A stretch of DNA of 6,511 bases, from positions 1 to 6,511 of IMG/VR virus record IMGVR_UViG_2698536485_000005. The stretch is one strand, 5' to 3'. This DNA is from a virus. Its lineage: Duplodnaviria; Heunggongvirae; Uroviricota; Caudoviricetes. Made by a program: the position numbers and the translations under genes. Each line of letters opens with the position of its first letter. The stretch's first letter is position 1. The notes beneath the pieces were generated by a model. The model worked only from the letters and a program-made list of their open reading frames with translations, was not told the origin of the DNA and ran no database searches. This document shows, in pieces, positions 1 to 6,036 of the stretch.

Positions 1-151
1 AGAGCCGTGTTTATTGAGTCGGTATTCAGAGTCTGACCAGAAATTATTAATCTGGTGAAGTTTTTCCTCTGTCATTACGTCATGGTCGATTTCAATTTCT
101 ATTGATGCTTTCCAGTCGTAATCAATGATGTATTTTTTGATGTTTGACATC
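1..151 (-). CDS. Hypothetical protein, N-terminal 50 codons only (runs off the left edge of the window); start ATG at 151..149
   Basis: Open minus-strand frame from ATG (151) to the window edge: MSNIKKYIIDYDWKASIEIEIDHDVMTEEKLHQINNFWSDSEYRLNKHGS... GAGG about 9 nt upstream of the ATG; in-frame stop immediately upstream fixes the start. Not in the ORF track because it is partial. No family recognised. Confidence 0.45.
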
Positions 152-171
152 TGTTCATATCCTCACAGATA

Positions 172-345: not shown

Positions 346-795
346 TTACTTAACCAATGATGCTGCATATTCGATAAGGTAAAGTTTTGGGGCCAGCCAA
401 ATTTTTAACCAAGTCATATTGGTTACTACACCAATAATAAAAATCCCCCACAGAGTCAAAACTCCAACCAATGGCATGATAAGAAGGTTAATATCTCCTT
501 TGCTATCCCAAACCATTGTCGGCCTGTATTTGGGATTTCCCATCTCCCATGAGTATCCTTCATCACCGATTTTACCTGTCTCAACTCTTTGGCACTGCTT
601 CTTCATAAACCAGAAAACCAGTGGGATTGTTAGAATGGCTATTAATGTTTTAATCAGACTGTCAACCATATTCCATAGCAGCAACTGATGAACAACATCA
701 GGAATCTGTGCCTGGCTAAATGAAACAGCCGCGTCTATTCCATTACTGGCTTTTTGCAGTAGTTCTACGAGAATCTTGTTTGCTTGTTCTTCCAT
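346..795 (-). CDS. Small integral membrane protein (149 aa, two predicted transmembrane helices), function unknown; candidate prophage exclusion/abortive-infection effector
   Basis: ATG start with AAGGTG 4 nt upstream on the minus strand. About 46 soluble N-terminal residues, hydrophobic helix LIKTLIAILTIPLVFWFM, about 38-residue loop, second hydrophobic helix INLLIMPLVGVLTLWGIFIIGVV, short C-terminal tail. A+T-rich relative to the replication genes. No family recognised from memory. Confidence 0.7.
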   Translation of the reverse strand: MEEQANKILVELLQKASNGIDAAVSFSQAQIPDVVHQLLLWNMVDSLIKTLIAILTIPLVFWFMKKQCQRVETGKIGDEGYSWEMGNPKYRPTMVWDSKGDINLLIMPLVGVLTLWGIFIIGVVTNMTWLKIWLAPKLYLIEYAASLVK

Positions 796-873
796 ATATC
801 ACCTTAAATAGTGGATTGCGGTAGTAAAGATTGTGCCTGTCTTTTAACCACATCAGGCTCGGTGGTTCTCGTG

Positions 874-925
874 TACCCCTACAGCGAGAAATCGGATAAA
901 CTCTATTCACCCCTACAGAGAGAAT
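874..925. repeat. Two near-identical 16-17 bp direct repeats (ACCCCTACAG[C/A]GAGAA) spaced 34 bp apart in the divergent intergenic region
   Basis: Copy 1 at 875..890 (ACCCCTACAGCGAGAA) and copy 2 at 909..924 (ACCCCTACAGAGAGAA); they lie between the divergent starts at 795 (minus) and 941 (plus), the second copy just upstream of the GGAG ribosome-binding site of the 941 gene. Confidence 0.5.
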
Positions 926-940
926 GATGGAGATTCACCG

Positions 941-1480
941 ATGAGTAACTGGTGGCAGGAACTATTACGTTTCTTCCTGCGTGGTCTTACGCTACAACAG
1001 TTAATTCATATGCTTATTATTTTAATTGCCTTGATAATAATCACCCCAGCATCAATTAAAGAGTGGGTAGATATAAGGAACCCCGAAATACTTCCAGATC
1101 ACTGGATGTATTACGCAATGCTTTTGTGTATCAGTTATGTTCTGAACAGGGTGATGGAGTTTATATTTCTGGCATCTTCAGACAGATATAAAAAATATCT
1201 CAGTAAGAGAGATGAGGCTAAAGTAATTGTGGAGACTGAGCACCTGTTCAATTCTCTGAGTATTCAGGAAAAAGAGGTTTTAGCATTTGCTGTTATGGCA
1301 AATAACAAAATTGTACTTAAGCACGGCGATCCGGTCGCTTTATCTCTTATGAGAAAAGGCCTTCTCCATCGCTCAGGTGTGACTTACAGCGCGTCAGGTA
1401 AAGAGAAATTTGTTATACCTGACGTCTGGTTCCATGAGTGTTATATGCGCTTTGCTGGTAAAGCTGATGAGCTAATTTAG
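941..1480 (+). CDS. Membrane-anchored protein (179 aa; two N-terminal TM helices plus about 100-aa soluble C-terminal domain); possible SieB-like superinfection exclusion protein
   Basis: ATG with GGAG 8 nt upstream. Hydrophobic segments LIHMLIILIALIIITPA and WMYYAMLLCISYVLNRVMEFIFLA. Lies next to the immunity region and convergent with the predicted pL, the arrangement I recall for sieB in lambda/P22/Rac. Size and topology fit SieB, but sequence homology was not verified. Confidence 0.6.
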   Translation: MSNWWQELLRFFLRGLTLQQLIHMLIILIALIIITPASIKEWVDIRNPEILPDHWMYYAMLLCISYVLNRVMEFIFLASSDRYKKYLSKRDEAKVIVETEHLFNSLSIQEKEVLAFAVMANNKIVLKHGDPVALSLMRKGLLHRSGVTYSASGKEKFVIPDVWFHECYMRFAGKADELI

Positions 1481-1594
1481 TTCCTCGACGGCGGGGGATC
1501 GTCATCTCGCTGTCAGTTGTTTTGATTTCCTGTTGCCTGCCGCGTAAAGAGCTTGTGTCACGAGATCGCTAACCCCGTATATAAAAACACTTCA

Positions 1595-1610
1595 ATAACT
1601 ATCAAGTTAT
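1595..1610. repeat. Perfect inverted repeat ATAACT-atca-AGTTAT in the pL leader region
   Basis: Exact 6-bp arms with a 4-bp spacer; a second perfect inverted repeat with the same half-site in the opposite arrangement (AGTTAT-aaa-ATAACT) lies at 1743..1757 beside OL. Confidence 0.4.
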
Positions 1611-1706
1611 GGAAATGTTCTTTTGTAGTGAGCAGCATTGCCGTTCATCCTGAACCCGCCGCGCTCCCGACGCATGGTTTAATGTCGCGCCGTTCGACAT
1701 GGCTTA

Positions 1707-1735
1707 ACTATATCCAAAGCTATTATTGATGTAAA
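1707..1735 (-). promoter_or_regulatory. pL-like early leftward promoter
   Basis: On the minus strand: -35 TTTACA (plus 1730..1735), 17-bp spacer, -10 TATAGT (plus 1707..1712); predicted start near 1700. Both hexamers overlap operator-like sites. Confidence 0.6.
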
Positions 1736-1749
1736 TAGCTATAGTTATA
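1709..1749. promoter_or_regulatory. OL operator sites (two recognisable 16-bp sites matching the OR half-site consensus)
   Basis: AATAGC-tata-GTTATA (1734..1749) and TATATC-caaa-GCTATT (1709..1724) match the OR consensus AATAGC-N4-GCTATT; centres are about 25 bp apart and overlap the pL -35 and -10. Confidence 0.5.
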
Positions 1750-1874: not shown

Positions 1875-2606
1875 TTAGTAGTCAACTACAGACCACCAGA
1901 AGATTCTTCCGATGATCTCGATATCGCTTAGATTCTTTTCTTCTTGTGGGTATTCCAGTGAGTTAAAGCTTCTAATGCTTACCTTGTCAGGCCCTGATCG
2001 AAAGAGAATCTTAATGCGTTTCCAACCGTTCTCGTTAATGGCGTAAATCTTTCCGTCAACTATTTTCTTATCGTTGGTGTTAACAGCAACTGTTGTTCCA
2101 TCAGGAATGTTTGGCTCCATGCTGTTGCCACGAGCCGGAAAACAAACAACCCCGCTTCCATCACTGTTCGCACCAACTCTGCGAAGGGTTGATTTGGAGA
2201 AGCGCAACATAAAGCCGTTGTGATCTTCATCAATCACCCGACCATCCCCGCATGCAAACTCAATATCTTTAAGGTAAGGAATTTCAACTTCATCACCTCT
2301 TAAAGGCGTTCCTCCATCCCATGGGTCCAAATATCCCCACGTGCTTTCATGAGGAATAGAAGATTTTGGATTATAAGGTTCAACTCCCTCATCACGCATT
2401 GGCCCAGTTCCATCGGAAAGCCATTCCGTACGAACTCCAAGCACTTTTGATATTTCAAAAAGTTTGCGCGTATTGCGTGTTTTTCCAGACGTAAGTTTCC
2501 AGACGCTTGGCTGAGACATGCCAACAGCATTGCCAAGTGAAGCCTGAGTAAACCCAGCCTGATCCATCGCGTATGTAAGCCTTTGAGAAAAAGTATCTAG
2601 TTTCAT
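1875..2606 (-). CDS. cI: CI-type prophage repressor: N-terminal HTH DNA-binding domain plus C-terminal LexA-like S24 autopeptidase domain
   Basis: 243 aa. N-terminal HTH region (...GFTQASLGNAVGMSQPSVWKLTSGK...), C-terminal GNSMEP serine motif (Ser162) and downstream GWKRIK lysine, with a linker F-A-C-G about 42 residues before the Ser. Divergent from cro across an operator region; apparently leaderless start, as for lambda pRM transcripts. Confidence 0.93.
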   Translation of the reverse strand: MKLDTFSQRLTYAMDQAGFTQASLGNAVGMSQPSVWKLTSGKTRNTRKLFEISKVLGVRTEWLSDGTGPMRDEGVEPYNPKSSIPHESTWGYLDPWDGGTPLRGDEVEIPYLKDIEFACGDGRVIDEDHNGFMLRFSKSTLRRVGANSDGSGVVCFPARGNSMEPNIPDGTTVAVNTNDKKIVDGKIYAINENGWKRIKILFRSGPDKVSIRSFNSLEYPQEEKNLSDIEIIGRIFWWSVVDY

Positions 2607-2714: not shown

Positions 2715-2945
2715 ATGGTCAACAAGGCTATTAAAGCGGCTATTGACTCAGTAGGAAGTCAGCAAAAGTTAGCTGATGCCTGCGGTGTTAAGCAGCCGTC
2801 TGTATGGGCTTGGTTGCATGGGAAGAAAAGGGTATCCGCTGAAAATGCCAAGCGCATTGAAATGGCTACCAATGGAAGCGTCCCTGCATACCTGATTCGC
2901 CCTGATTTATCCGCTTTGTTCCCCAATCCGAACAAAGCAGCTTAA
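2715..2945 (+). CDS. cro: Cro-like small HTH repressor (76 aa)
   Basis: ATG at 2715 with AGGAG 8 nt upstream (the ORF-track start at 2673 is a TTG lying inside the operators/promoter). First rightward gene after OR/pR; HTH segment QQKLADACGVKQPSVWAWLHGKK shares the QPSVW motif with the CI recognition region. Not lambda-Cro-like in sequence; the call rests on position and HTH. Confidence 0.8.
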   Translation: MVNKAIKAAIDSVGSQQKLADACGVKQPSVWAWLHGKKRVSAENAKRIEMATNGSVPAYLIRPDLSALFPNPNKAA

Positions 2946-3064
2946 TAAAGCAAATCTTTATACCGAACGGCCCGGTATACGGTCGGGTGCCCGGCGTGGT
3001 CAAGGATGACTGTCAATGGTGCACGATAAAAACCCAAATTATTTATCTATGGAGATAGTAAGAA

Positions 3065-3361
3065 ATGACACAAGCAAGTTACAGCAAGCCAACACAGCGA
3101 GAAATTGATCGCGCTGAAACTGATTTACTCATCAACCTGTCAACGCTTACCCAGCGCGGTCTGGCAAAGATGATTGGCTGTCATGAATCGAAGATAAGCA
3201 GAACGGACTGGAGATTTATTGCTTCGGTCTTGTGTGCTTTCGGAATGGCATCAGATATCAGTCCGATTAGCAGGGCTTTTAAGTATGCGCTTGATGGACT
3301 CACCAATAAAAAACGCCCGGCGGCAACCGAGCGTTCTGAACAAATACAAATGGAATTTTAA
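3065..3361 (+). CDS. cII: CII-family transcriptional activator (98 aa)
   Basis: GGAGA ribosome-binding site 9 nt upstream. The C-terminal about 20 residues (LTNKKRPAATERSEQIQMEF) match the lambda CII C-terminus as I remember it; the N-terminal two-thirds differ from lambda CII. Position directly after cro is canonical. Confidence 0.85.
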   Translation: MTQASYSKPTQREIDRAETDLLINLSTLTQRGLAKMIGCHESKISRTDWRFIASVLCAFGMASDISPISRAFKYALDGLTNKKRPAATERSEQIQMEF

Positions 3362-3658: not shown

Positions 3659-4606
3659 ATGAGCAATACAGCAAAAATCTACGATTTCAGCGCCGCACAC
3701 GAGCGCAGGAGCAACAGGATGGAGAACCAGAAAACTGGTTACATTCCGTTGTACCGGAGCATTCTGAAACAGTCATGGGCGAAAGATGTTTATCTTCGCA
3801 CCCTGTGGGAAAACCTTCTCCTGAATGCCGCCAGAAAGCCATACAAAGCGAATTTCAAAGGTCATGAATGGCATCTGCAACCCGGTCAACTGGTTGTGAC
3901 AGCAGCTGATTTAGGTCTTCAGTTATGCGACAGGCATGGCAAGCCGGCAAGCCGTGATCAGGTTGAGCGGATGCTTCAGGTTTTTGTGAAAGAGGGGATG
4001 ATCTCCATTGATGGAGAGAAGCAAAAAGGTCGTGTGATCACCATCACAAATTACCATGAATACGCTCAAAAAATGGACAATTCACCCGCACATGATGCCG
4101 CACAAACAACCGCACATGATGCCGCACATGATGAAGACAGTAATGGCGCGGCTTTCAGCGTACATGCCGCACATGAAAGCGCACATGAAGCCGCACAAAC
4201 AACCGCACATCATGAACAAGAAGGTATTAACAAGAATATAAATAATACCCCCCTACCCCCCAATGGGGGCGGCGATGGGCAGGTTAAACCTGAACGTCGC
4301 AAGGCAGAACGCATCGACTACGAATCCTTCCTGAACGCCTACAACACCGAAGTCGGTGACAGACTGCCACACGCTGTTGCGGTCAACGAGAAACGCAAAC
4401 GCCGCCTGAAGAAAATCATCCCGCAACTGAAAACGCCAAACGTGGACGGTTTCAGAGCGTATGTCAGGGCGTTTGTGCATCAGGCCAAGCCGTTTTACTT
4501 CGGAGACAACGACACGGGCTGGACGGCCGATTTTGATTACCTGCTGAGAGAAGATTCGTTAACGGGAGTTCGGGAAGGGAAGTTTGCAGACAGGGGGATT
4601 GCATGA
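3659..4606 (+). CDS. O-like replication initiator protein (315 aa) with the internal origin
   Basis: N-terminus [10 protein letters not shown]... resembles the lambda O N-terminus (MTNTAKI...). The middle of the gene carries tandem 12-bp DNA repeats encoding an Ala/His/Asp-rich linker, followed by an AT-rich tract; the stop overlaps the helicase start (ATGA). Confidence 0.88.
4086..4250. repeat. Replication origin: eight 12-bp iteron-like direct repeats in two blocks of four, followed by an A+T-rich unwinding region
   Basis: Block 1 at 4086..4133 (CCGCACATGATG, CCGCACAAACAA, CCGCACATGATG, CCGCACATGATG); block 2 at 4167..4214 (CCGCACATGAAA, GCGCACATGAAG, CCGCACAAACAA, CCGCACATCATG); AT-rich stretch 4215..4250; then a CCCCC...GGGGG element at 4251..4270. 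Same iteron-plus-AT-tract-inside-O layout as ori-lambda. Confidence 0.7.
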
Positions 4607-5979
4607 GACAGGATATCGAAGCGAGCGTTATCGGTGGCCTGCTGATTGGTGGATTAACACCAACCGCCAGCGACGTTCTGGCAACACTGGAGCCGGAAGC
4701 GTTTTCAATTCCGCTCTACCGGAAAGCCTTCGAGGTTATCCGCAAGCAGGCGAGAAACAGAAACCTAATCGATGCGCTGATGGTTGCCGAGGCGTGCGGA
4801 GAGGAGCATTTCACGTCAATCCTGATGACCAGCAAAAACTGCCCGAGTGCCGCAAACCTGAAGGGATATGCCGGAATGGTCGCGGATAACTATCACCGCC
4901 GTCTGGTGCTGGAAATCATGGATGAAATGCGTGAACCAATTCAGAGCGGAACCATCGACGCATCGAGTCAGGCGATGGATGAACTTGTAAAACGTCTCTC
5001 AGCCATCAGAAAGCCCCGTGACGAGGTTAAACCTGTACGGTTAGGGGAAATCATTACTGACTACACTGACACGCTTGACAGGCGTCTGAGGAACGGAGAA
5101 GAGTCAGATACCCTGAAGACCGGAATCGAAGAACTTGATGCCATCACCGGAGGGATGAACGCGGAAGACCTGGTGATAATCGCTGCTCGTCCTGGTATGG
5201 GGAAAACCGAGCTGGCGCTGAAGATTGCCGAAGGCGTGGCAAGTCGTGTTATTCCTGGTTCTGACGTCCGGCGCGGAGTATTGATTTTCTCGATGGAAAT
5301 GAGCGCATTGCAGATTGCAGAGCGAAGCATTGCCAACGCCGGGAGGATGTCGGTTAGCGTACTGCGAAATCCTGCATCAATGGATGACGAGGGCTGGGCA
5401 CGTGTTGCTAACGGCATGAGTCAGCTTGCAGATTTGGATGTATGGGTAGTCGATGCCTCGCGGTTATCGGTCGAAGAAATACGCTCAATCGCAGAACGGC
5501 ACAAACAGGAAAATCCAAACCTCTCACTCATCATGGCGGATTATCTTGGCCTGATTGAGAAGCCGAAAGCAGACCGCAACGACCTCGCAATTGCTCACAT
5601 CTCAGGAAGCCTGAAGGCGATGGCGAAAGACCTGAAAACACCGGTTATCTCCCTAAGTCAGCTTTCGCGCGATGTTGAGAAGCGACCAAACAAACGCCCG
5701 ACAAACGCAGATTTGCGTGATTCAGGAAGCATTGAGCAGGACGCAGACTCAATCATCATGCTCTATCGGGAAGCGGTATATGACGAGAACAGTAGCGCCG
5801 CGCCATTTGCTGAAATCATCGTGACGAAAAACCGTTTTGGCTCACTTGGTACGGTTTACCAGCGGTTCTGCAACGGACACTTTGTTGCATGTGACCAGGA
5901 TGAAGCCAGACAGATTTGCACAGCATCAAATGCGCCTGCTGCGCGTGGCAGACGATATGCACAAGGGGCGGACGTATGA
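4603..5979 (+). CDS. DnaB-family replicative DNA helicase (458 aa; P22 gene-12-type phage helicase)
   Basis: AGGGGGA ribosome-binding site 6 nt upstream. DnaB N-terminal domain motifs (IGGLL..., [15 protein letters not shown]), Walker [13 protein letters not shown], and C-terminal [41 protein letters not shown] typical of DnaB helicases. Confidence 0.95.
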
Positions 5980-6004
5980 CCATCTACATCACTGAGCTAA
6001 TAAC

Positions 6005-6036
6005 AGGGGCTATTTACACAGTAGCCCTTTTTTATT
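6005..6036 (+). terminator. Intrinsic terminator after the helicase gene (tR2-like position, before the nin region)
   Basis: Stem GGGCTA (6007..6012) / TAGCCC (6022..6027) with a 9-nt loop, followed by TTTTTT (6028..6033). Confidence 0.6.

Follow-up and report, generated by a model that had tools for sequence, protein, structure and literature searches.

Organization of the locus

The stretch of viral DNA analysed here (the window, 6,511 nucleotides) comprises the immunity and early region of a lambdoid prophage, as judged from its open reading frames and their Pfam matches. Its features are collected in Table 1. The first intact ORF of the early-left operon encodes a 149-residue predicted membrane protein. 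In phage HF4s the same gene (phrog_3054) directly adjoins N. The gap between this gene and the DUF2528 gene contains, on the minus strand at 177-198, an intrinsic terminator-like sequence (GCCCTC...GAGGGC followed by T6) that is a tL-type terminator and would need antitermination. On the right side of the window, direct repeats built from CCGCACATGATG and ACAACCGCACAT units occupy positions 4087-4214 (plus strand) within the O-type replication gene and are probably the iterons of the origin. Directly 3′ of the helicase gene lies a hairpin followed by a T run (5997-6035, plus strand), with an operator-like palindrome, ATAGCCCCTGTTAT (6000-6013), embedded in it. This hairpin possibly serves as a terminator before the nin region.

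Table 1. Genes, RNA elements and control sites of the 6,511-nt window, in order of position
Feature	Position	Strand	Basis
DUF2528 gene fragment	1-159	-	
Gene for 149-aa predicted membrane protein, phrog_3054, without Pfam match	346-795	-	ORF list, PHROG
sas-like antisense RNA	819-945	-	Homology to P22 sas
sas stem-loop 3, CCAC...GUGG	848-865	-	RNAalifold: 4 pairs, 3 with changes on both sides
sas stem-loop 2, UUCUCG-C-UGUA-GGGG-UACA-CGAGAA	866-890	-	MFE fold; RNAalifold
sieB promoter, -10 TAAACT at 897-902, predicted transcription start ~909	872-909	+	Homology to P22
sieB ORF, ATG start, 179 aa	941-1480	+	ORF list
Esc-like in-frame product, 156 aa, predicted start Met24 (ATG 1010-1012)	1010-1480	+	Alignment to P22
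Terminator-like hairpin, then T-rich tail, directly 3′ of sieB stop codon	1487-1514	+	Terminator scan; fold -16 kcal/mol
N antiterminator 3′ stub, last 15 codons, ...LYAAGNRKSKQLTAR then stop	1502-1546	-	Translation compared with intact N of L003
putL RNA element, HK022 type, directly downstream of pL	1630-1700	-	blastn; HK75 annotation
oL1	1710-1723		Operator palindrome ATAGC-N4-GNTAT, overlaps pL
pL, TTTACA-17-TATAGT, -35 at 1730-1735, -10 at 1707-1712	1735-1707	-	Promoter scan, 10/12 matches
oL2	1735-1748		Operator palindrome ATAGC-N4-GNTAT, overlaps pL
Intrinsic terminator of cI-type repressor gene	1857-1837		Terminator scan
cI-type repressor, 243 aa, HTH + S24 peptidase	1875-2606	-	Pfam
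cro	2715-2945	+	
putR RNA element between cro and cII	2964-3025	+	Nearly identical to annotated HK75 putR
cII	3065-3361	+	
O-type replication gene	3659-4606		
DnaB-type helicase gene	4603-5979		

Apart from the two operators at pL, three more copies of the palindrome lie in the spacer between cI and cro. The palindrome has 14 matches against 1.04 expected, a number that none of 200 shuffles reached. In this immunity type these sites are therefore oL and oR. The pL of the window aligns with the one annotated in HK75 and is, in a promoter scan, the sole leftward sigma-70-like promoter between the sieB ORF and cI. The same type of scan places a pR-like promoter at 2655-2683. Since pL faces the 3′ end of sieB and is overlapped by operators, sieB is convergent with a repressor-controlled promoter situated about 220 nt from its stop codon. 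The original prediction had likewise set the gene opposite to pL.

No promoter-like site was found by the scan on either strand of positions 1-1000, so the genes for the 149-residue protein and the DUF2528 protein would be reached by transcription that crosses sieB in the antisense direction. Gene order suggests, as it does for lambda and P22, that these left genes would depend on read-through from pL across sieB. Related loci have cIII, kil and recombination genes on the left side as well. Between pL and the 149-residue protein gene, the minus strand contains no GC-rich intrinsic terminator-like site. A 17-bp AU-rich hairpin (1581-1622, minus strand; -15.5 kcal/mol, z -3.4) is located between putL and sieB. 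It may be a pause or terminator-like element overridden by put-modified polymerase, or transcription may be impeded there.

A SieB-family protein with a predicted internal start

The 179-codon ORF is present exactly as first described, and its assignment as SieB-like, initially made from context and topology, now has homology behind it. By its sequence the ORF encodes a SieB-family protein, matching Pfam PF14163 (SieB) with 72.8 bits (gathering score 26, E 2.9e-20) and PHROG 1301 with an E value of 6.1e-94. Alignment with the known proteins gives 48.9% identity to P22 SieB over residues 2-179 (99% of the length; tblastn E 1e-42) and 21% to lambda SieB. Among the isolated phages in the collection searched, no sieB copy exceeds 51% identity to that of the window (tblastn). 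A 98%-identical protein is the head of a 245-member sequence cluster, and the E. coli records inspected contain 99%-identical copies under the annotation super-infection exclusion protein B. Homologues were collected by a word-indexed search, which returned six proteins only, and by an exhaustive search of representatives, which returned 37.

The protein has two hydrophobic segments, covering residues ~16-38 and ~56-79 on the Kyte-Doolittle scale. Both are helical in the AF2 model, with low confidence there; the mean pLDDT is 72.6 and rises above 90 at residues ~100-175. The model consists of a short N-terminal helix, two membrane helices, a long helix and a compact α/β C-terminal domain. A Foldseek search of the PDB with this model gave no match at E <= 0.001. 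The top matches were MarR-type winged-helix proteins (E 0.019-0.2, none significant), and a winged-helix likeness of the modelled C-terminal domain (residues 100-175) is tentative. As all matches have E values above 0.001, the fold assignment says little about the mode of killing by SieB.

It had also been proposed that one of several internal in-frame methionines could give rise to an Esc-like truncated product. Seven in-frame internal ATGs are present (M24, M56, M60, M72, M119, M137 and M169), and the one relevant to Esc is Met24. In the curated P22 record BK000583, sieB corresponds to positions 2195-2773 of the P22 sequence used here (L009) and esc to 2267-2773, that is, from SieB codon 25. 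This Met25, the annotated Esc start of P22, aligns with Met24 of the window, and lambda has a Met in the same column. An alignment of 24 homologues, with identities down to ~20%, has Met in this column in 20 sequences and a Met no more than two residues off in 23. Three of the 37 library representatives start exactly at the equivalent residue. For a Met at the head of a transmembrane helix this is a high degree of conservation. It fits a conserved internal initiation codon in the aligned sequences, and the exact Esc codon is predicted to be Met24. No Shine-Dalgarno (SD) sequence was found upstream of the Met24 ATG, and the context is AU-rich. The Esc-like product would differ from SieB only by the absence of the 23-residue N-terminal amphipathic segment.

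The predicted sieB promoter and sas antisense RNA

The sequence at 872-909 is identical to the P22 region annotated as the sieB promoter and RNA start (L009 2127-2157 and 2164). A scan for sigma-70 consensus promoters did not pick up this site, implying a weak or atypical promoter. In P22 the region is also transcribed from the opposite strand. A 127-nt RNA, sas, was sequenced from P22-infected cells in a 2026 small-RNA sequencing paper (PMC13397905), and its sequence is exactly that of the minus strand of L009 at 2073-2199. It extends from 5 nt inside the sieB coding sequence through the SD sequence and the 5′ UTR to beyond the sieB promoter on its upstream side.

The window contains a homologue of this RNA. 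Its positions 819-922 are identical to the 3′ part of P22 sas at 103 of 104 bases, from CUCUCUGUAGGGG onward. The 5′ 23 nt (923-945) have diverged from P22 in step with the sieB leader, and on the minus strand they are perfectly antisense to the window's own SD (GGAG, 929-932) and AUG. The overlap between sas and the sieB mRNA is 37 nt (909-945); it covers the 5′ UTR with the SD and ends five nucleotides into the coding sequence, just past the start codon. Because both the pairing end of P22 sas and the sieB leader with its SD differ in the window, the pairing is probably allele-specific. The antisense control of sieB that was originally suggested has a candidate in sas; this discrete RNA lies mostly upstream of the ORF and so outside the coordinates first given (941-1480).

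A 130-nt block upstream of the gene is all but unchanged between the window, P22 and lambda, although the P22 and lambda proteins share just 49% and 21% identity with that of the window. The block is present in 139 phage records. An Rfam scan of the whole window gave no family match at sas, putL or putR, elements for which Rfam has no family. Weak matches to mir-7927, Yfr1, Trp_leader and isrK fell on the AU-rich hairpin and the cI terminator and were rejected as chance or generic terminator matches. HK620 (L012 901-1496) and ev099 (L011 901-1496) have the same promoter/sas-like cassette with twin GUAGGGG motifs, and here it precedes unrelated ORFs without a Pfam match, hkaP (164 aa) in the former and a 167-aa ORF in the latter. 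The cassette apparently serves various exclusion-type genes as a portable unit of regulation.

Conserved structure of sas

All of the diverse sieB homologue loci that were fetched carry the twin GUAGGGG motifs upstream. An earlier covariation set of six near-identical sequences had too little variation, and the analysis was redone with 12 diverse loci. RNAalifold predicts three helices in sas with 18 pairs in total, and 92% of cells are paired. Changes on both sides are seen at 11 of the 18 pairs, compared with 3.3 ± 1.3 in shuffles (the value is reached in 0 of 500) and 0-4 in slid controls. Helix 2 accounts for eight of the pairs, six of them changed on both sides. U-G and G-U pairs are frequent in the helices, and the other strand would have A-C or C-A mismatches at these positions. 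Since helices 2 and 3 are upstream of the sieB start site and the G-U pairing is specific to the minus strand, the RNA under selection must be the leftward transcript. The window sas is not more stable than shuffled sequence by minimum free energy (z -0.41), and in MFE folding of putL, putR, sas and the sieB leader P22 sas (z -1.8) was the only case of clearly greater stability than in shuffled sequence. Support for a structured sas therefore comes from comparison of sequences by covariation only, not from single-sequence folding.

A block of 130 bp could also be kept as DNA, serving as the sieB promoter, as a regulator site formed by the twin ACCCCTACAG repeats or as a recombination boundary. 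Of the two ACCCCTACAG copies, one falls on the -35 region of the sieB promoter annotated in P22 and the other on its +1, mosaic joints are found on both sides of the block, and boundary sequences are annotated nearby in Sf6 and CUS-3. However, helices 2 and 3 show compensatory changes together with G-U pairs that suit the minus strand only. Both precede the sieB start site, in a part transcribed leftward only, and the RNA itself was sequenced in P22-infected cells (PMC13397905). Conservation at the DNA level is an improbable account of the block, and the DNA and RNA readings do not exclude each other.

The origin of sas also needs to be considered. The discrete 5′ end of P22 sas, 5 nt inside the sieB coding sequence, would be expected of an independent transcript with its own promoter in the 5′ end of sieB, in which case read-through from pL would be irrelevant and convergence would merely follow from gene order. 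Reviews call sas an asRNA and leave pL unmentioned (PMC12197685, PMC7067206). Yet the minus strand between 300 and 1700 has no sigma-70-like promoter besides pL, and in neither the window nor P22 does inspection by eye reveal an acceptable -10/-35 pair ahead of the sas 5′ end. In addition, the sieB coding region upstream of sas is conserved to only ~49% (protein), which makes a conserved promoter within it unlikely. A separate sas promoter is unlikely on this evidence, and the absence of a minus-strand consensus promoter upstream of sas favours processing of sas from the pL transcript.

Predicted antitermination by put RNA in place of N

The stub of N that remains next to sieB has neither a start codon nor the arginine-rich motif and is preceded by an in-frame stop. 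The match to N-bearing prophages (L003) breaks at position 1548. Inspection of all short minus-strand ORFs between 1481 and 1875 revealed no N gene, and a lambda-type N/nut system is absent in that the window has no N ORF and the pL leader is putL, not nutL. A 34-bp junction (1549-1582) adjoins the N stub. What fills this junction varies among related loci: in L002 it is occupied by an HNH endonuclease gene. In L016 an HNH_3 gene stands next to an N-like gene. These arrangements suggest a rearrangement hotspot associated with homing endonucleases. Two diverged sieB homologues from metagenome or genome loci (L018 and L021) are followed by a convergent cI-like repressor gene (HTH + S24) with no called gene in between, a layout that resembles the architecture of the window.

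The putL element is 92.8% identical to that of HK022 and HK75 (blastn) and has one compensatory change in stem I. The putR element is ~270 nt downstream of the pR-like promoter, the same distance as reported for HK022 (PMC9378689). Both elements have the two-stem sequence of put. Under the influence of put RNAs, E. coli RNA polymerase acquires resistance to terminators of the intrinsic and the Rho-dependent type; their action requires no phage protein and reaches at least 10 kb, and HK022 needs no N (PMC9378689). By analogy, the pL transcript that crosses sieB should be made terminator-resistant by the protein-independent putL route and not by N. Its sequence places the phage among the few lambdoid phages that are independent of N. 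In APC_JM3.2, an isolated phage, cI, pL, putL and putR are the same as here and N is likewise not annotated; the N-less state is therefore a normal lifestyle for this immunity type rather than decay.

Decay would be at issue if sieB were an inert remnant in a defective prophage, a view to which the reduction of N to a stub and the frameshifted cI in a related copy on pCDF6_2 could lend themselves. It is very improbable: the sieB ORF is intact, the 98%-identical protein heads its large cluster, the N-less APC_JM3.2 exists as an isolated phage with the same immunity type, and HK022 dispenses with N (PMC9378689).

A proposed sieB-esc-sas circuit

SieB aborts the lytic growth of superinfecting phages, and Esc, produced from within sieB, protects P22 (PMC12197685, PMC7067206, PMC12888859). 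The sas RNA base-pairs with the sieB mRNA and switches translation between SieB and Esc (PMC12197685, PMC7067206). As every sequence element of the P22 circuit is present in the window, the same circuit probably operates here, with the polymerase modified by putL and not by N. The favoured reading, with a probability of roughly three in four, is that the locus is a complete P22-type sieB-esc-sas module for superinfection exclusion, belonging to the early-left operon of a lambdoid prophage that lacks N and, like HK022, depends on put. What the sequence contributes to this reading is the homology of the protein, the promoter, sas and the put elements, the order and strands of the genes, the conservation of Met24 and the covariation in sas. 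Expression, the translational switch and antitermination are modelled on the work with P22 and HK022.

In the lysogen, CI would repress pL, and sieB would be transcribed from its own weak promoter (~872-902) with a start at ~909. The mRNA would yield full-length SieB, a 179-residue abortive-infection effector of the inner membrane, and, from Met24, the truncated Esc-like protein of 156 residues, an antagonist of SieB. During lytic growth, polymerase starting at pL would transcribe putL, become terminator-resistant and proceed over the N stub and antisense through the whole of sieB into the downstream early genes. The leftward transcript would contain the structured sas (819-945), probably the stable species. 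The 5′ 37 nt of sas would pair with the 5′ UTR, SD and AUG of the sieB mRNA and block SieB initiation. The Esc start, 69 nt downstream, would be left free, and the phage would not kill itself.

Convergent transcription could itself be the means of control. Polymerase modified by put should traverse the entire sieB gene, and the Esc start is also covered in antisense by the full pL transcript, so that collision of polymerases, or RNase III acting on a long duplex, might silence all sieB mRNA including Esc, with no switch from SieB to Esc. General silencing of this kind is distinctly unlikely, however: the Met at the Esc start is strongly conserved across the family and sas has compensatory changes, a sign that the internal start and a discrete folded RNA are themselves under selection, and not just bulk antisense transcription.

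A switch that selects between the two starts may involve pairing within the sieB mRNA. The region around the SieB start (AUGAGUAACUG) is able to form a helix with the 12 nt that immediately precede the Esc AUG (CAGUUAAUUCAU). The equivalent helix in P22 joins AUGAA-CAACU to AGUUG-A-UUCAU, with an apparent C-G to U-A compensation. In the window the long-range duplex has an energy of -11.4 kcal/mol compared with a mean of -6.85 in synonymous-codon shuffles (p 0.068). The helix reaches p <= 0.07 in 8 of 13 homologues and gives nothing in lambda and three others; the combined p is 8e-5, a value inflated by the relatedness of the sequences. Pairing between the SieB and Esc starts is a hypothesis for which these values are suggestive only. 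A fuller version of the circuit can be drawn from it, in which the switch would work through the intramolecular helix: by binding at the SieB start, sas would shut off SieB and at the same time expose the start of Esc, which lacks an SD. The variable 23-nt 5′ end of sas would make self-escape allele-specific, and put-modified polymerase would drive the whole. The odds are against this version in its entirety. If true, two RNA-only regulators, put and sas, would be linked with no phage protein involved.

Relation to known phages and significance

The P22 sieB-esc-sas system was reportedly described by Ranade and Poteete in 1993. The locus resembles it in protein family, in the position of the internal start (Met24 versus Met25) and in an essentially identical promoter block, and sieB has the same orientation relative to pL at the same promoter-proximal end of the early-left operon. 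In contrast to P22, the SieB protein of the window is 13 residues shorter at the C-terminus and ~51% diverged. Between sieB and pL, the 15-codon N stub and putL of the window stand in place of gene 24 (N) and nutL of P22, and the left neighbour is ral in P22 and the 149-residue membrane protein gene in the window. Lambda sieB (lambdap48, 34482-35036) shares the Pfam family, the upstream block, convergence with pL and the Met at the Esc position. It differs in a diverged first sas stem-loop and leader and in the use of N and nutL, and the long-range pairing between the two starts is not predicted in lambda.

The antitermination elements relate the locus to a different set of phages. HK022 and HK75 share with the window the closely matching putL, a nearly identical putR, the positions of both relative to pL and pR, and the absence of an N gene. 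Unlike the window, they have nun downstream of putL, and the HK75 stretch examined is without the sieB module. The repressor of the window (243 aa) and its operators are of another specificity, ATAGC-N4-GNTAT, which is unrelated to ATGAC; the best DNA matches are Wanchaivirus PDP110P2 and phage APC_JM3.2.

On sequence grounds, the locus is a diverged allele of the already known P22/lambda sieB module, and current understanding of that module is not overturned. What is added is the exact Esc codon, the location of sas with its first covariation-supported structure, and the put-type, N-less context. The self-immunity circuit known from P22 appears as a portable cassette in lambdoid phages of Escherichia, Salmonella, Klebsiella and Hafnia, set in this case amid HK022-type RNA-mediated antitermination. 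Esc and sas are normally left unannotated, and the conservation of the Esc start together with the structure of sas could improve the annotation of many prophages.
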